In this document: one piece after another, positions 5,064 to 57,400 of the stretch
How positions within the stretch are numbered: position 1 is the stretch's first letter
How the letters are laid out: each line of letters starts with the position of its first letter
Source: Camelus ferus
Taxonomy: Eukaryota
Assembly (NCBI RefSeq): GCF_009834535.1
Contig: NC_045696.1
Coordinates: 38,628,001 to 38,692,000, forward strand
Direction: 5' to 3'
DNA length: 64,000 nt
Translations under genes and position numbers: made by a program
Notes under the pieces: generated by a model
The model's input: the letters and a program-made list of their open reading frames with translations, nothing else
Told to the model about the DNA's origin: nothing
The model's database searches: none

Positions 5064-5188
5064 CACCTTCCCTGATAGGTATGGTAAGGAAGGACTGGGC
5101 ATCTCAAAATAGCATTGCCCTATCATGGCAAGCACCTGCTTTTTCCAATGGAGCCATACTGGACTACGAGATCAAGTACTATGAGAAA
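5064..5188 (+). CDS. EPHA6: EPHA6 internal coding exon (exon 6 equivalent), N-terminal half of the 2nd fibronectin type III domain
   Basis: Polypyrimidine tract ttttctttcctttcag (AG 5062-5063) and donor AAA|gtaggt (GT 5189-5190). 125 nt, phase 1 in, phase 0 out. Translates (A)PSLIGMVRKDWASQNSIALSWQAPAFSNGAILDYEIKYYEK, recognised as EphA6 FN3-2. Confidence 0.96.
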
Positions 5189-11525: not shown

Positions 11526-12420
11526 GGCCCTGCTTCTCCATTACCTCACCTGAAAGGCATAGACATAGAGAAAATAACCACAACCCTCTAAACATACACA
11601 TGAACTTAAATACTGAACCATCTTTGTAACTGGCTAGGACCACTGTAGATGTTACATGACTTGTATGATGTTTGAATCTAAAATATTAATCTGAAGCAAG
11701 ATGTAGTAAATAAGGGACTGAGTCAGTTTCAGATACAATTGAGTGTTTCTAATGGAATCATCAAATTCCTGAGCTGGTAACTAGTTTTGTGTTCTTTATT
11801 TTACTTCCTTTTCGTAATTCTTATTTTGTTGCCATGTCCACCACAGAGAAATTAGATATGAGCATTTAGTACTGATTAAAAGAACATTACCTGATAAAAA
11901 ATAGACAGCGAGAGAATTTACTGATACAGACACTCATGATGGACATTTCACGGCCAATTTCCACATTGTGTAGCAAACAGTACACTGTGCAGAAGCCTGT
12001 CTGGTTTAGCGAACCCAGGGAGTCCCCACAGGGCCTGGAGCAGAGATTCTCAGGGTCACATGCCTGGGACTGGTGCCAGTGCTGCATGTATGGTTTGAGT
12101 GTATCTAAGTTGAAAAAACTTAAAAGATATTTGCACTGTTGCGTCTAGTATAGAGTTTGTACCCACATGAAAATTACAAGTGTCTACTGACTCCTCTAGC
12201 TTTAAATTGTCTTCATTTCTTAAGAGTTTCACTAACTTTTGTTTGATTTGAAAAATGGATTTCTTTAAAATTGTAGAAGCTACATTCAGTATGTCAAAGA
12301 TTTGATACATCCAAAAAAGGAAAAATTGAAGTTGGTAGAACTAAATACTCTAAATGTACTTCATTTAAACTTCAGAATATATCTAAATTTATAGATTGAA
12401 ATGGAGGTTATAAACACAAT

Positions 12421-17627: not shown

Positions 17628-18100
17628 ATGCACTAGTTCTCTATTGCCACATAACAAATTATCCCCAAACTTAGTAGTTTTGAACAATGAATAGGTATCA
17701 TCTCACAAAATCTCTGAGAACCAGGAATCTAAGAGTGGCTTAGCTGGGTGGTTCTATCTCAAGGTTTCCCATAGGATTGCAGCCAAGCTGTTGTGGGCTG
17801 CAGTCAGCTGAAAGCTTAACTGAGGCTGGGCAGCTGTTTATCAAGCTCATTCATGGGATTATGGGCAGAAAGCTTCAGCTGCTCATCACATCTAAACTTG
17901 ATCACATCTAAAAGAGAATGCACATTTAAGACCAAAGAGGCAATGTCTTTAGTTAACTAATCTTAGCGGTTTCTATCACTTCTGTCATATTCTATTGGAC
18001 ACACAGTCCAACCTTGGTATAATATGGGAGGGGATTGCATAATGGTGTAAATGCTAGAAGGAGGGGATCATTAGGGTCTATTTTGGAAGCTGGCCACTGT
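17628..18100 (-). mobile_element. MLT1 (MaLR) solo LTR
   Basis: tagttctctattgccacataacaaattatccccaaacttagtagtttt...ggcttagctgggtggttct...gggtctattttggaagctgg is a classic antisense MLT1. Confidence 0.8.
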
Positions 18101-31884: not shown

Positions 31885-32418
31885 TGTTTCAGTTACCTCT
31901 TCCAGTACAACGGACTACCCCCATAATGTAGTGGCTTAAAAATAACAATTCATAAGTATTACATCTCATGAAGCTGTGGGTCAGATACTTGAACAGGACC
32001 CAGCAGGAGCAGCCATCTCTGCCCCACAATTTCTGGGACCTCAGTTAGGATGATAGGAAATAGGCTAGGGACTGGGACACCTGAGGAATGGCTGTGCATA
32101 AGGTCGCATCGTCATCCCTTTCTCCCTCCCCTCCCTCTCTCCTCTCCCACCTCTCCACTCCACTCTCCAAGATTCCTCCATGTGGCTATCTTGGGAGTCT
32201 ACATAGTTTGACAGTCAGGCTAGTCATACATCTTAGACTGCAATGCAGAGCCCCAAGCCAGAAGTGGAAATTGCCAGTTTTCTTAGGGACTGGACAAGTA
32301 ACCTCTTTATTGGTCATATCAGTCACAGGCTAGACCAGATTCAAGGGGCAGCGACACAGACCTGACTCTTCGTTGAGAGGAGTGTAAAATAACTAGCCAC
32401 CATCTTTAACTCACTGTA
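31885..32418 (-). mobile_element. MLT1 (MaLR) solo LTR
   Basis: gtagtggcttaaaaataacaa...tctcatgaagctgtgggtcag...attggtcatatcagtcacaggctagaccagattcaagggg...gccaccatctttaa. Confidence 0.75.
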
Positions 32419-35400: not shown

Positions 35401-37439
35401 AAGCCTGACCCTTTGAAGTGGTATAATCTTTGCATTTTTCATAGGTGAATTGACTACAACTAGGACACCACTGGACTCATCCTAGCACTAGTAGTTTTGT
35501 AAAGGTCGCATTGTAATAATTTAGCCATTCTCCCTAACAGTAAATTTAACCACTATTTCAAGCAGTCAGTTATCTACTTATAAGTTATCTGTTTTCTGAA
35601 AATCAATTGTGAATGCTTAATTCTAGGTCTGTATCATTCTCCCATCAGGTGTACTTTGAGGCCATCTCCTACTATTGCTCAACATATAACATTCAAGGAA
35701 TGCATTTAATTTTCATTTTAGGTGAAACAAGATACACATTGGAAGGAATATAAGAAAAAAAGTCACAAATGCATTTAAAAGTGATTTAGGGTTATCTCTT
35801 ATTTTGGGTTACTGGGGATAATCAAGAGTTGATTAGAGTAAATTATAGCCATGGTAAATGATACTTCTCTAAAAGTGCAGTCAGAAAGTAGTTGTGTACT
35901 TAGAATATCTACTTCTACATTTTTCTTGCTTACACTTAATTTATAATTTTATCATAGCAATAGCCAGTTTTTACCTAAAAATATTTCAGAACACCTTACC
36001 CACTACTTAGAACACCCTACCAAATAGCTTGTTAACCCCTTCTTGCCCCAAATTAGAAACTCTGTCTTATGTACTTAAATGAATGTGAGAAAAGAAAACA
36101 ACTCTTTTGGTTCCCTCCAACAAAATCCAACTCTGATGATTATTTATGGGTGTCAAAATGTAGAATCCAAGGCAGAGCAGAATGTCCTAGACTCTGGAAG
36201 TCAGCAACCAGAAAAGCTGAGGTTATTCAACTTCAGTGCAGTTCTTTCTCTGTATCGTCCCTTCATGGATTCAGTCTCATTGGAGGAGAAATCTCTAATC
36301 ATTCTAGCTAGCTTTTATCTTCGGAGAAATCAGCTTGTTGGGACACTATCCCCATTTTCCCCTGGTGGTGCAGTTAACTTAGATCTGGTCACAGGAGAAT
36401 CACTGTGAGCTGGAACCATCCTAATTTGTGCTTCTACTTTGGAGCAGCAGTTTTAGTAGCCCAGTTCCCAATGATATGTGACTACATGTTAAGTGATCTA
36501 GGTATTCCTCTGTGAAGATCAATCATAGACATTTATTAAACACCATGCATCGAGCACTCCTTTGCTTTCTTGTTTTGTTTTCTAAGGGAAATATAGGTCA
36601 CATTTTTGAGGAAATAGCAGTCTACTTGGGGATATATATTGCTATACATTGAAATAACTATAGAAGGAACCAGATAGTATAAAATTTTTCCATCATTCTT
36701 TGAATTATTCCTTGAAAATCACACAACAAAATCAAAAAATTAAAAAACTCCCCCATCTCACCACCAAAATCTATTCATTTGAAGATTTAAAATATTTTCT
36801 TAAATAACATGTTTAAGAGTAATAGACTTAAATTGTAAACTGTTTAAAAATGAAAGACATTGAGATATATACATGAAGAGTTGACATCAATAGATACAAG
36901 CTTAGATTCAGCATTTTAGGCAAATGAAAGGTTCAATGTGACAATAAGATTAGACTCCCAGGAAAGCCTAGATTCTCAGCAGCTAGGAAAGAGCAATTCC
37001 TGAGTCTAAGCTGCAAGATCTGCCCTTGAGAAGAGACCCGAAGTAAAAGTTTATATCTCTAGAGAACAATACGTGCATATTCTGTTTGACAATGAATGCC
37101 TTGCGTTTACACTATTTAGTTCTGAACTATGGTTTTAATATATGTAGCTACAAATATATAAAATAGAAATTGTATACACATTTATTTTAGGAAATGATAT
37201 ACATAGCAGTATGTTAAAATGTATTGCTACTACATGCTTTTTTTCCACAATTGGTGCTATTATTCATGCCCATCCAAGTAGTGCAAAGGCTGTTTCACAT
37301 TCAGCCAACAAACATTAGTGCAGAAGACTGCCAGTGTTCTCAGCAATGAGCCTCCACTGTCCAGTGTGCTTTGCAACCCGTGGGATAATGCCTTGGGAGC
37401 TTCACTTTATGTCATTTATTTACTGCCTGACAACCTGTC

Positions 37440-38010: not shown

Positions 38011-39801
38011 TTGAGCCCACCTGGGCAAATAAAGCAATCTAGATGGCTCTGTGGCAAAGCACTGTCTCTATCTGGTGATAGCTACTTTGATATGTCAGCA
38101 GAAAGGCCATTAGCCAAAGTTCCTAGACAGTAGAGCTTGAAAACAGCAGGAGAGAGGGCTGCTGTGCACTGGAAGGAAGGACTCCCCTGACTCTGCTTTC
38201 TGAGCTCTCTTTGGCCCTCTCAGAGGTGGGAATATGTAAGACAAGGCAGCAGCCACCATGCTGCTGTGATTTAGGTTGAGGAACCATGTAAGCACACTTC
38301 CTACTTAGTGATTTTTATTCCAGGGATGTAGCTACACATACACTTCTGTATAACAACAGACATGCCATAAGCTATTTGCAAAAGGTGTCCTTTGCTCCCT
38401 GTAACTTTACTGAGTAAGAAATTACTATTTAGCTATGTTTTTAGGTGAGGCAACCAAGATATAATGTGTAATTATTATGAGGCCATTCTGAGAGTAAATT
38501 TTTGAATCTGTATCTCCTCTCTTTAAGGATGAAATTAAATTCTTTTTGCAGGATTTTAAATGTCTCTTAGTCATAATTTTATATTATGAAGCACTATTCA
38601 AAGTACACCATAACTCTCATGTTGCAGAAAATTCTGGGAGAGGTGGAATATTCTCCTCTGGTATATGAGAATAAACAATCCAATAGTTTTTTGCAAATTT
38701 CTCCCACAAACAATATTATCTCTTCTAGTAGTACACATTTTTTTGTCCGCAATATGGATGTTAAGCCCTCTAATTATAGAGGCCTTGATCTTAGAAAGCC
38801 TCTTCTTTTAGCAGATAATGACTGCCATCAATGATTTTATAGACTTTATTTCATTGGATTTTATGGTAGGCAGATATTTATTTACTTTCTAATCTGAAAA
38901 TTACCTAGGGATAAATGTATGTTGCAATTTGTTTTGTCTTTTCTACTTAAAATGTTGCTATTGTTAATTCATTTATTACTTTGTACTTTGTGTTTAATAA
39001 ACAGTTCTATTTGGGGTATAGATGGGGAATTCAGTTACTCAATTGACACAGAATAAGTATCTAGCATATAAAGTTCTGACAAATAAAGGCCATACAGTTT
39101 AAAATTTATCTTTAAGAAAAGGATTCTTTTCTCAAAAATAGCTTAAGGGAAATTATTTTCATAGTTTTAAATCTTAAAGCATCACCAGTCAATAAATGCA
39201 GTTTGACACATTCTGCACGTGCATAGATTTTTATAACGTTATTTATTAGTCTGGAAAGTCTCTTGAACAACAGAGATTTTTCTGACAAAGGTGAAAATAA
39301 ATCCTGATGGGAATATTATAGATAGAATTTAAGGATCAAATCAGTAATTCAGTTAATGATCTTGTAAGTCACTTCCAGTTCTGAGAATCTCTGTCTTTAG
39401 ATTTGTAACTCAAGGGCGTGGTGGCCTAATTTGATCTATGAATTTAGAAGAGTTGTTCATAGAAATAAAGGGTTTTTTTTTTCAAATACCGTATTAAAAC
39501 ACCATTATAAAGTTACTGAACAATAACACTATACAAAAACAGTACTGAGTTTAATGTATCCCCACCACCAGCATATTGTGCACTGTCTCTTATGTGCACA
39601 GGTGAATTGTTCTGAGGTGGTGGACAAGACAGCCCACTTAAAAGACCCTGAATGACTAGAGTGTTCAGTTAGCTGTGGTTCCTGTTAGTGGGGAGAGATG
39701 GTCTGGCAGTTACTTGCAAGTGACTGGGAATTAAGCCTCCAGTCCTGCCTGATTTCCTGCTGTCTTTCATACCTTACTTTGTCTTCGATGTTTCTTCACA
39801 G

Positions 39802-39836: not shown

Positions 39837-40048
39837 GTAACTTGTACCTCTTTACAAAAAAACTGTTGTCTTTGGGGGGGAGTCAATTTCCCCTCAAAGG
39901 AAAATTGTCATCGTTTTATGTCTAAAGTTGAATCAACTTCAGTTGTTACTGCTGGGGAATCACTGAGTTTCAGAACAAAGCAATTGATTCAGGATAAAAG
40001 ATTTCAAACGTTAAAAAACAATTAATTTATTTTTCCTTTCACCCACAG

Positions 40049-40096
40049 GTCTACCCACGGATAGCGCCGGCATTTTGGCACTACCTGCGGGTAGAA
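40049..40096 (+). CDS. EPHA6: Candidate alternative 48-nt cassette microexon of EPHA6 (VYPRIAPAFWHYLRVE)
   Basis: Acceptor ttatttttcctttcacccacag with a ttaat branch-point-like motif about 23 nt upstream, and donor GAA|gtgagt. Length is a multiple of 3, phase 0/0 as required, no stop codon, and 4 CpGs are retained in a CpG-poor intron. Confidence 0.72.
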
Positions 40097-40501
40097 GTGA
40101 GTAGCGGGTACTTGAATTCTCCCACCTTGCTCCTTGCACTCTGCTGGTGTGGTCTGATCCAGTGTGCCCATTTTGTCCAAGATGCAGCTGCCATTCTGTG
40201 TAAACGTGCTCTCACGCCACCACCATTCCTTAGAGTTGGATCAGAAATCCAAGGCACCACAAATACAAGTGCAGTTTATATAAGATGATCATCTTTCTTA
40301 GTAAATTTTCAAATCAAGACCATACCATGTGCATAGTAATTGGTAAATAAGTCAGTGCTAAATTATGGAAAACCATGCTTACACCACTTTTTGATCAGTA
40401 TTTTGAAAGTCAGAGCATAATTCCCCAGCTTAACTTTAGAATGTTTCTAGGAAAAAGTAGAATAACTGCTTCATTTCCTTTCTCGTCTTTTCTGTCCCCA
40501 G

Positions 40502-40664
40502 GAGCACGAGCAGCTCACCTATTCCTCCACGAGGTCCAAGGCACCCAGTGTCATCATCACGGGTCTCAAGCCAGCCACGAAGTACATTTTTCACATCCGG
40601 GTGAGGACTGCAACAGGATACAGTGGCTACAGTCAGAAGTTTGAATTTGAAACAGGAGATGAAA
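40502..40664 (+). CDS. EPHA6: EPHA6 internal coding exon (exon 7 equivalent), C-terminal half of the 2nd FN3 domain
   Basis: Acceptor ttttctgtccccag (AG 40500-40501) and donor GAAA|gtaagt (GT 40665-40666). 163 nt, phase 0 in (matching the upstream exon), phase 1 out. Translates EHEQLTYSSTRSKAPSVIITGLKPATKYIFHIRVRTATGYSGYSQKFEFETGDE, with the FN3 GLKPxTxY motif. Confidence 0.96.
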
Positions 40665-54000: not shown

Positions 54001-56419
54001 ATCACATACTCTTCTGAGGGGGACTCCTTCACTGAGTCTAATATGATTTTTTGAGTGATCCTGGGCTGTGAATCAGCTGCCACTCATCTCCATAAACAGG
54101 AAAGAAAAAAATTAAGAAGGAAGAAAAATAATGTAATTCTGGTAAGAAACCTCCCTTAGGGTACCCTCTGTGGAGTCCTCTTCTGGCTCTCAACAAGAAA
54201 TGACATGACTTATTACCCGTAGCTGCCTACCCCATTATAAATGTTTGAGAATGAAATAAATAACTGAATAACTGATTTCCTTGCAAAGGAATAAGCATCC
54301 CACAGAAAATCATGTTCAGCTGTATATTGAAAACTATATTGTGACTCAGAATAGGTATTGGTTATGCAACTACTTCTGTAAGTAATAAGTTTGAGTATCC
54401 TGTTTGAAGAAGGATTTAACTTTTTCAAACTATGGAATGGATACAAGTTTGAGAATTTTTGAACTTTTATAAAATCACATTTTACCTTGCATAATGCCTG
54501 GAAAGAGGGCTACTGCATTCTTTTCCAAATTAACCCAAGTTGCCCGGCAGACAGAGCACCATGTGGGAACAAACCAAGGCGACTAGGAGGCCTTTAGCAC
54601 TCTCTTCTTTTTTCTGTCGTGTTTTGTACTGCAGCGCAAAATGCCTTTTGAATCCTTCTAAATCCTTGACAGCCGATTTTTGTCCGTTAGAGACCCACTT
54701 CTCACTATTTGTATTTATCCATCTTACCAACTGCATCCTATTAGAACTACCTGGCTGTCTTTTTGTCATTTTCCCTCTCTCTTCTTGCTAAACTGTCCCC
54801 TGGGATGATGGATTTCAAATTGTATTAACGAAATAGGCAATTAAGACACCCAGTAACACCCATGGTGATCTTCTTTTAAGTTATGTACCTTGAAATTGCT
54901 ATTTGCTTGAATTCAGCAATATTTTTAAGGACTGTAAAAGTATATCATTCATGATTAGGCTCTACCCAACCCTTGAGATTATTAATAGAAGCAGGCAAGA
55001 AAAATTTAATGTTTTTTATTAAAACAAAAAAAAACCCTACACACATGAAACCTTCACACATGAAACTCTATCTGCTTAAGATAGAGAAGTATTTTAATGG
55101 AAATGAAAGCAAATTGGGTAAATAAGAAGTTGATGGAGTAATTCTACCTTAGCACTGATCAGTGACATCTAGAGTAAGGCCTGAGAATTTAACACAGTTG
55201 AGGAGAGAAGGGGCATCTTATTTGGTCCATGACTGGGAGGATAGTTGATATAGTCTTATATGCATCCTTAGCTTAAGGCTTCCAGTAGCTAATGCTATGG
55301 AAATTGGGGGATCCGGGCAGGTGAAGAATGCCAAAACTCAGTTTGGAAAATGAAAACAATTAGAAAAATACTTTTTGTTGATCTTCAGAAGAGAAGCAGA
55401 ATAGAAAAACTCACTTGAAGCTAGATATATGCACTTCTGTTGCCTGAGAGGCAGGGGCAGGGAGTGGGAGGGAAGAGCTTAACACATGAATTAGTGAATC
55501 TAGTAAGAATATGAAATTTAGAAATTCTTCTCATGTGCTTTAAAAGGTGATAGAGTGATTTCTCTTAAATTTTTTGTTAATCATTCAGAATTATTTAATC
55601 AAGAATATTGCTTAACAGAGCACACCCAAACATATATAACTAATCTAAATCATTAATATCACTTATTAGAGGTGTGAGAGGATTACACTGATCGTCAAAT
55701 TTCATGTTCTAGAAAGAAAGCTGAATGCTTTCAGCCACTAAGTAGCATGACTTTTCCCACATACATGCTAACACATCTAAATTGCCCTTAATTATTATGG
55801 GGATGCCTTCTCAGAAAGCTTGACTAACTAAACAGAGGAATGTTGATTTTTACTTGCATTTCTTGTCTCCCTAAAAACATTTGAGGCAGTTTAAGACAAA
55901 ATGTTAATGTATAAAATGTTTAATAAACCAGAACTGGAAGTAGAAAATTAGATCCATAAAAACAAGAGGGAACAAAGTCTTGTGTTGATCATTATTACTA
56001 GTGATGCTGTGTGTGTTCACCATCTCTGCCTCTGAGATTTCTGGCAGCAGCCAGAGAATAGAGAAGTGATCATGCTTTTACAATATGAAGCACAAATGCT
56101 GGAGGTAAGCTGTATGGAGGCCACTGAGGATAATGGCCTCAAGCAGAGTTTTTTCAACAAATGCAGAAGTTTGTTTGTTTCACGTGGTGTTTTCTGACCA
56201 CCGCCTTTGATAGAAGCAGACCTGAAGTAAAGTGTCACTGACTGAAGGTGGTTTTCCTATGAATGGAGTGAGATAAAGAGAGAGGAAGGTTACTTAGTGT
56301 ATTCCATGCATACAGACTTCAAAAGAGAAAATATACCCAGTGAACGAATGAAAAGAATCACCCCTCAAATCTATTTTCTAAGTGTTTTGTCCTTTGGTCA
56401 GGAACTGAAAATTAGAATA

Positions 56420-57400
56420 CCCTAAGACCCTTTGGTTGTTAAGTACCAAAAATACCATAAGCTAAGTTAAGGGAAAAGAGCTACAAAAATGTCCCAGACA
56501 GGACTGCAGGGGAAAGCATGGGGCATAAATCCAGGCTTCAAAAAGGACTGAAACAAGAAATCGGAAAGCCCTGGAAATGAAAGGCAGCCAATCTTTTTCT
56601 TGGTCCACAAAGTCACACATCTCTGTTTCTCTCTCTCAAGGATAGTTTTACCTGCATCTATGTTCATTTAGGAAAAAGTATCTTATCTGCCCCATGGCTT
56701 GCAAATTCACATTTCCCCTTCATTTCAACCATTGATCAAAATAGCCAACACGGTGAATTCCTGTCGACTGAAATAAATGCACAGCCTAAAAGTTGAGAGT
56801 TATGTTTTCTTTGGCGGGAGGACTCAGAGCCAGGATGACAGCCTCTCAGACGCTCTGAGGGACTGCTCCGAAGAGGTAGGGGAGGAGCTAGGATATATAG
56901 GAGCTTTACAGCAAAGACCAGGTAGTTGGAACAATAAAAGATTACCTGTTATCTAAAGAAAAGCAGGCATCTCCAGTTAAAGAATTTAGTGGTTTTCTAT
57001 GTATGGGAGGAAGCAAACATTTGGGTTTATTGAATTCATTCCTTTGACAAGCATCTAGCTATCTAGGGTCATTATTTTGTCCTTTATTATTCTGAGTCCA
57101 CTCAGAGGGCACCACTGTGAGTGGCTGCAGAGGCTGGACTGCAGGTCTGTCCTCACTTGGGGGGGGTGGCAGCCACTGATGACTTGGTTTCAGCATTCTT
57201 TGTTTACTGATACAGTTGCAGTATTTTCATTCACAATCCTAATCCCAAATTCCTGGAAGAGAGAATGTGGGTGGCCCAGTTTGAATCAGATCTCCCAATT
57301 CAAGACTGGGAGCTGAAGACAGAGAGAACAGTCTTCTAAGGCCCTGCCCTGGGTGAGGCAGTTTTTGGAGACAGGAGCTGTTTCTGTGTACTCTGAACAA
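56420..57400 (-). mobile_element. MLT1J/K-like LTR interrupted by a younger ERV1 LTR
   Basis: gaccctttggttgttaagtacc...agctaagttaagggaaaagag at the start, and gagagaatgtgggtggcccagtttgaatcag after the insertion. Confidence 0.5.
56762..57235 (-). mobile_element. Young ERV1-class solo LTR
   Basis: TG...CA termini (tgtcgactga ... ttcattcaca), flanks TTCC/ATCC, reverse TATA (ggatatatagg), CpGs retained. Layout resembles the LTR at 31371-31870. Confidence 0.78.

Follow-up and report, generated by a model that had tools for sequence, protein, structure and literature searches.

We found that a 48-nt segment of Camelus ferus DNA is a genuine, already annotated, tetrapod-wide cassette exon of EPHA6, a nerve and axon-guidance receptor gene, and that practically the whole exon is an imperfect palindrome, so that the transcript, according to structure prediction, forms a single hairpin whose base brings the 3′ and 5′ splice sites next to each other. 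The hairpin is far beyond chance, and the choice of synonymous codons, as far as one sequence can show, leans towards pairing. Structure-controlled inclusion of the EPHA6 exon is plausible; the best reading, held tentatively at a probability of about 0.4, is that the hairpin would act in cis to tune the inclusion of its own exon. The analysis covered the window, by which we mean the whole stretch of 64,000 nucleotides (C1:38,628,001-38,692,000 of a 2.09-Gb assembly), AT-rich vertebrate DNA with a GC content of 0.27-0.42. All features listed here lie on the forward strand.

5064..5188, forward strand: upstream constitutive EPHA6 exon of 125 nt, bordered by tttcag/CA and AAA/gtaggt, with a translation that matches named EPHA6 proteins
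40001..40048, forward strand: conserved upstream intron flank with the polypyrimidine tract and the 3′ splice site tttatttttcctttcacccacag (read from the sequence; 9/16 residues in the alignment with P0001, described below)
40049..40096, forward strand: alternative cassette exon of 48 nt, phase 0 to phase 0, encoding VYPRIAPAFWHYLRVE
40050..40070, forward strand: 5′ arm of the predicted hairpin (fold and pair table)
40071..40074, forward strand: loop CAUU (widened to 40070-40075 in the MFE structure)
40075..40095, forward strand: 3′ arm of the predicted hairpin (fold and pair table)
40097..40135, forward strand: 5′ splice site gtgagt and conserved downstream intron flank (11/13 residues match P0001 in the same frame)
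40097..40296, forward strand: intron segment rich in YCAY (9) and YGCY (6) by motif counts, a candidate platform for splicing regulators
40502..40664, forward strand: downstream constitutive EPHA6 exon of 163 nt (EHEQLTYSS...FEFETGDE), coding for the latter half of the second fibronectin type III domain

The identity of the host gene was established from the two constitutive exons. When the translation of exon 40502-40664 was used as a protein query, the named matches were almost all ephrin type-A receptor 6 (120 listed of 171), with 100% identity in several non-primate mammals and 96-98% in the listed primates. The upstream exon 5064..5188 ends in phase 0 with ...ILDYEIKYYEK and makes up the first half of the second fibronectin type III domain. 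Between the two lies the 48-nt exon, which by direct reading is bordered by tttatttttcctttcacccacag/G (cag/G) and GAA/gtgagt, is in frame and contains no stop codon; its single open frame gives the peptide VYPRIAPAFWHYLRVE, and its limits were corroborated by annotated EPHA6 proteins that read ...YYEK-VYPRIAPAFWHYLRVE-EHEQ.... The 16-residue insert is rich in aromatic residues and lies in the fibronectin type III domain nearest the membrane, at the junction of its two coding exons. The splice sites of the cassette exon look, by eye, as good as those of its constitutive neighbours: the 5′ site is gtgagt, and pyrimidines make up 18/23 of the bases preceding the AG. Direct reading found no UGC motif between this pyrimidine tract and the AG. 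In the literature, the human full-length EPHA6 gene is given 18 exons, and the sections of the same article that treat EPHA6 splicing describe a truncated variant after exon 5 (PMC5828187); another article on EPHA6 concerns expression only (PMC2709591). No paper describing this EPHA6 exon or its palindromy was found in a search of main texts, and the whole-exon palindrome appears to be undescribed in the literature searched.

The use of the exon across species was read from protein sequences. The search with exon 40502-40664 listed 120 of 171 matches, and the junctions were parsed in these 120. Among the matches listed, 64/120 carried VYPRIAPAFWHYLRVE or a variant of its first residue at YYEK/EHEQ (51 with VYPRIAPAFWHYLRVE, 12 with an Ala start and 1 with an Asp start), while in 41/120 YYEK was joined straight to EHEQ, the exon being skipped; the other 15/120 were uninformative (truncations, different inserts or read-through ORFs from genomic DNA). 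A second search, targeted at the junction, revealed seven more insert-bearing proteins, including those of four further frogs and two whales. Carriers were found among frogs, squamates, turtles, crocodilians, birds, platypus, marsupials and placentals. Moreover, pairs of isoforms 16 residues apart occurred within single species, namely Anolis carolinensis (1007/991), Paroedura (1010/994), Lacerta (1011/995), Manis (1057/1041) and Macaca fascicularis (1035/1019). Since the insert is present in some isoforms and skipped in others at the same junction, it corresponds to a real cassette exon. Judged from the distribution of carriers, the exon dates back at least to the divergence of frogs and amniotes, some 350 My ago. 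Neither the 120 listed of 171 matches nor the 60 matches of the second search contained a fish or shark EPHA6 with the insert, a result that is weak on absence.

We found that the insert has hardly changed over this time. YPRIAPAFWHYLRV, that is, 14 of the 16 insert columns, was invariant in 43/43 aligned insert-bearing proteins, compared with 30/41 and 37/54 invariant columns in the flanking exons (67/95 together), and this gap in invariance between insert and flanks is not large. Only residues 1 (V/A/D) and 16 (E/D) vary, and their codons form the open end of the stem. Accordingly, 40050:40095 is the only pair that varies among species; it is broken without compensation where residue 1 is Ala or Asp, as in 13/64 of the carriers among the matches listed and in more proteins from the junction-targeted search. 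Further evidence came from P0001, a read-through ORF of a distant relative, which aligns over 45 residues only, centred on the exon, with identities of 16/16 in the exon, 9/16 upstream and 11/13 downstream, about 120 further upstream residues being unalignable. The confinement of this alignment to the exon and its flanks indicates that the exon sits in a small island of conservation, made up of the exon and about 40-50 nt per side within an otherwise unalignable intron. An AlphaFold2 model of the Varanus fragment P0008, built on a 43-row alignment, had a mean pLDDT of 61.7 (about 63 for the insert and <50 at residues 109-117) and a tentative strand at HYLRVE, a confidence too low to place the insert in the domain.

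Several other elements were observed in the same intron and window. At 36150-36225 on the forward strand, an ORF fragment ending ...SKCRIQGRAECPRLWKSATRKAE/ resembles, by eye, MLSQSRIQGRVELPSLRKAETRNAK/, the N-terminus of orangutan EPHA6 isoform X13 (P0015), in which this N-terminal peptide MLSQSRIQGRVELPSLRKAETRNAK/ joins EHEQ directly. The fragment may be a homologue of an alternative first exon within the intron; its candidate donor, GAG/gttatt, is weak, and tblastn detected no similarity between the P0015 N-terminal peptide and the window. In Meriones unguiculatus, isoforms P0020 and P0022 carry a different insert of 25 residues, EGKQKTQIIPEWIPEEMNGSKEETL, at YYEK/EHEQ, and tblastn found no match for this gerbil insert in the window. 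Because EGKQKTQIIPEWIPEEMNGSKEETL occupies the same junction, the intron contains at least one further cassette exon that is lineage-specific. Sliding scans also yielded other very stable folds, with 150-nt MFE values of -47 to -51 kcal/mol, at about 57051-57400, 56001-56150, 11951-12150, 17751-17900, 32001-32200 and 38151-38300.

The initial annotation, made from the letters of the window, had described the exon as a hairpin in which position i pairs with 80145-i, from 40050:40095 inward to 40070:40075. A pair-by-pair table showed these 21 register positions to be exact and reproduced every class of pair claimed: 15 Watson-Crick pairs, three G:U pairs (40059:40086, 40069:40076 and 40070:40075) and three A:C mismatches (A40057:C40088, A40061:C40084 and C40065:A40080) around a CAUU loop. 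The same table confirmed that all deviations from a perfect palindrome, six/six, are transitions, and the exon limits agree with the description of a stem that spans the whole exon except its first and last base, with the splice sites at the stem base. The mismatches had also been described as recurring every 4 nt. Their positions are right; the spacing is not significant and was noticed after the fact, the 1330 possible placements of three mismatches including 100 that are equally spaced and 13 with a spacing of 4.

Folding the exon alongside shuffled controls, which had been proposed as a check on the hairpin, bore it out. The exon has an MFE of -24.6 kcal/mol, compared with -12.3 ± 2.3 for 200 dinucleotide shuffles (z = -5.4), none of which (0/200) was as stable. 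It is the most stable of the 21,318 overlapping 48-mers of the window on each strand, and it holds 18 register pairs where mononucleotide shuffles hold 8.1 ± 2.1. In the predicted structure (ViennaRNA) the innermost pair, G40070:U40075, is open, leaving 17 pairs and a 6-nt loop. The fold was also stable to context: the mean pair probability of the stem was 0.92-0.94 in pre-mRNA contexts of up to 848 nt (up to 400 nt per side), and the hairpin was retained in both the MFE and the centroid structures of 148- and 176-nt folds. In the 148-nt context the z-score of the whole segment was only -1.35, with the hairpin itself still kept. A candidate second hairpin over the 5′ splice site was no better than shuffles (z = -0.31).

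To what extent pairing follows from the peptide was analysed by relating the register to the codons. Offset o of the exon pairs with offset 47-o, which sets second codon positions against one another and third positions against first. Among the pairs of two second positions, 6/7 pair; C40065:A40080 is forced by Ala/His and G40059:U40086 by Arg/Leu. Among those that include a third codon position, 12/14 pair. When the same peptide was recoded at random with synonymous codons, 13.9 ± 1.5 register pairs and a mean MFE of -10.1 were obtained; only 174/20,000 recodings (0.9%) reached the native 18 pairs and 35/20,000 (0.2%) the native -24.6 kcal/mol. Recoding nulls weighted by GC3 reached the native MFE in 2, 13, 23 and 29 of 6,000 cases. 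The peptide alone thus fixes about 14 of the 21 pairs and permits 20, and the native exon has 18. Silent repair would be possible for the mismatches at A40057 and C40084 and for two G:U pairs and is absent. The exon contains four CpGs, with an observed/expected ratio of 0.98 compared with 0.17 for the window. Since the silent sites of a very old exon have not been randomised with respect to pairing, some constraint acts there. The palindrome also leaves the antisense strand open across the exon, its codons being the reverse complements of the sense codons; a stop-to-stop ORF of 72 residues crosses the exon at 40022-40240 on the reverse strand. It follows from this relation that a translation of the antisense frame from another species would reveal the sense third positions.

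The symmetry bears on the origin of the exon as well. The amino-acid sequence is reverse-complement symmetric, which makes the palindrome as old as the peptide, and the positions that determine the amino acids are palindromic too, which makes an inverted duplication at the DNA level the natural origin. An ancient inverted duplication is, on the sequence, the likely source of the exon, and a template switch during replication would be the simplest known route to it. Template switching is described as making perfect stems in one event (PMC8794818), and the exon bears the corresponding signature, with two 21-nt arms, a 4-nt spacer and six/six departures that are transitions. The exon resembles template-switch hairpins (PMC8794818, PMC10710096) in its reverse-complement repeat, its short spacer and a possible origin in one event. 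The cases reported there are RNA genes and new microRNAs, whereas the EPHA6 case is a protein-coding exon, and, unlike those cases, its origin event would predate the frog-amniote split.

Retention of such a hairpin could be explained by an action in cis on the splicing of the exon itself. With the exon body double-stranded, splicing activators that bind single strands, and the exonic enhancers they recognize, would be out of reach; with the splice sites held close at the helix end, U1 and U2AF/U2 would hinder each other. An exon with good splice sites might in this way become skippable owing to its hairpin, and inclusion would hinge on melting by a helicase or on factors recruited by the conserved intron on either side. 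As each arm both codes and pairs, nearly any substitution would be doubly penalised, and we infer that this may be why the 14 inner residues have remained unchanged. A stable local structure that takes in the exon is predicted. Very short exons pose a steric problem in splicing, which having the AG and the GU at one helix end would make worse. A 48-nt exon may also be optional merely by its shortness. Regulated neural exons are commonly conserved at their silent sites, and such conservation could have preserved an ancestral palindrome without a structural role. The antisense strand is moreover the more stable one (-31.1 kcal/mol, as against -24.6 for the sense strand), and, because each strand has three G:U and three A:C departures, these show no bias towards sense pairing.

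Splice-site stem-loops that tune inclusion are known from MAPT exon 10 and chicken beta-tropomyosin exon 6B. Local stems also modulate the inclusion of SMN exon 7, which has a terminal stem-loop (PMC1802598). As in SMN exon 7 (PMC1802598), MAPT exon 10 and beta-tropomyosin exon 6B, structure at the edges of the EPHA6 exon could lower its recognition. The stems in those three systems, as far as the accounts drawn on go, cover one splice site or pair exon with intron, whereas the EPHA6 exon is predicted to be self-paired throughout, with both arms coding and both splice sites at one helix end. Conserved neural microexons measure 3-27 nt, or up to 51 nt by some definitions; the EPHA6 exon is like them in being short, in frame, optional, extremely conserved and located within a folded extracellular domain, and unlike them in that 48 nt exceeds the strict limit and in the missing UGC motif ahead of the AG. 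Downstream of the exon, 40097-40296 contains nine YCAY and six YGCY motifs against means of 3.1 and 1.4 in windows of the same size across the 64 kb, counts reached by 0.8% and 0.7% of such windows respectively; these fractions are uncorrected for the seven motifs and four regions examined and for the locally higher GC. The two motifs are of the NOVA and MBNL type.

The cis-acting hairpin has a close competitor in a frozen relic. According to this explanation the exon arose from a palindromic DNA event, its palindrome has since been preserved by the peptide and by exonic and flanking splicing signals, and the hairpin has no function. We consider it somewhat doubtful in itself and nearly as likely as the cis hairpin. 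The peptide's share in the pairing favours it, about 14 of the 21 pairs being fixed by amino acids alone compared with 8.1 in random sequence. The departures from the palindrome also resemble slow decay: C40056-A40057 and C40079-A40080 are of the CpG-to-CpA type and T40086-G40087 and T40076-G40077 of the CpG-to-TpG type, so that 4/6 departures are of a CpG-decay type. The even distribution of G:U and A:C between the strands, the greater stability of the antisense strand and the unused silent repairs fit a relic as well, and the conservation of the intron flanks suggests signals for splicing at the level of sequence. Against a relic stands the persistence of 12/14 third-position pairs in an exon that was already present when frogs and amniotes diverged, together with the rarity of synonymous recodings that match the native exon in pairs (0.9%) or in MFE (0.2%). 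These results point to a constraint on silent sites of which pairing is the simplest common denominator.

A bolder form of the proposed cis action takes the hairpin, not the peptide alone, as the selected unit. The complete coding exon would then be a self-contained RNA switch in which either arm has to serve as coding sequence and as pairing partner. The RNA constraint would have fixed 14 residues of this axon-guidance receptor since before the frog-amniote split, inclusion would proceed through regulated melting of the stem, and A40063 might be edited at a low level (Ile>Met) as an additional layer. We think this extended version unlikely.

Editing as the main role of the hairpin fares considerably worse. 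The initial annotation had seen in the exon a possible ADAR recoding module, a substrate for site-selective editing like the GABRA3 I/M site with A40063, A40061 and A40080 as candidates; this found no support, as the contexts are poor, an inducer duplex is lacking and no lineage has a hard-wired G, and we regard it as very improbable. Its codon consequences had been given correctly: A40063, the third base of ATA and followed by G, would change Ile to Met, A40061 Ile to Val and A40080 His to Arg, and the pair and codon table agrees that A40057 and A40093 would be silent if edited. EPHA6 is, by name, a neural gene, and the exon offers an imperfect exonic duplex with A:C mismatches. ADAR prefers a 5′ U or A and a 3′ G, often with the A opposite C. 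In the EPHA6 hairpin the adenosines opposite C lie in CAC, GAU and CAC contexts and not in UAG, whereas the two in UAG triplets, A40063 and A40093, are paired with U and not opposite C. The Gabra-3 I/M site has a 38-bp stem and additionally requires an intronic duplex 150 nt downstream (PMC3479170). The EPHA6 exon shares with that site an exonic hairpin, a neural receptor mRNA, an AUA codon whose last A stands in UAG, and A:C mismatches, while it differs in a stem of 21 positions and in having no inducer duplex within ±4 kb; with 17-18 pairs the stem is about half the length of the Gabra-3 one (PMC3479170). The ±4 kb region holds only arms of 25-34 nt with 70-73% complementarity and no long inverted repeat, and the downstream intron folds like shuffles (z = +0.63, z = -0.31). 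In the same report, a comparable chicken Gabra-1 hairpin that has an A-C mismatch and no such intronic duplex is described as unedited (PMC3479170). Ile5 and His11 are invariant in 43/43 aligned proteins, and none of them has a genomic Val, Met or Arg at these places. A search of titles and abstracts yielded no paper linking EPHA6 to RNA editing.

A role at the DNA level or on the opposite strand (a cruciform, a binding site for a dimeric protein, or a hairpin in an antisense transcript) has a slimmer chance still. The minus-strand hairpin is the stabler one (-31.1 kcal/mol, z = -6.8, pair probability 0.99), but its stem has only 21 positions, its only Rfam match was sub-threshold, and the element coincides exactly with a coding exon of the sense strand. 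In that Rfam search nothing scored above threshold, the best match being mir-9198 on the minus strand with 21 bits against a gathering score of 92 (E = 1.4). A microRNA precursor or mirtron was rejected, with no match to a curated family and a stem of only 21 positions, which is short for a microRNA precursor.

The least probable explanation is that the exon is an exonised member of a palindromic, MITE-like transposon family: it would fit the near-perfect inverted repeat, the short spacer and the departures that are all transitions, and a family older than the frog-amniote split, as the exon is, could have decayed past detection, but a 106-nt DNA query and a peptide query each found one place in the 2.09-Gb genome (lower bounds), the arm pattern with up to three mismatches occurs at one place in the window, and no flanking repeat features were seen on reading the sequence. 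Since the sequence is single-copy, the MITE-like origin suggested in the initial annotation is unsupported as worded; of the exonised ancient palindromic element proposed there, the part that stands is an ancient palindromic origin, which is likely given that the coding positions are themselves palindromic.

The main interest of the palindromic exon is that it may regulate itself and that one sequence would be constrained as both RNA and protein. Were the hairpin to prove functional, a complete coding exon would serve as its own splicing regulator, a compact case found in nature, and would show how overlapping RNA and protein constraints can lead to extreme sequence conservation. As synonymous mutations in the stem spare the protein, they would offer a simple handle on the control of EPHA6 isoforms.
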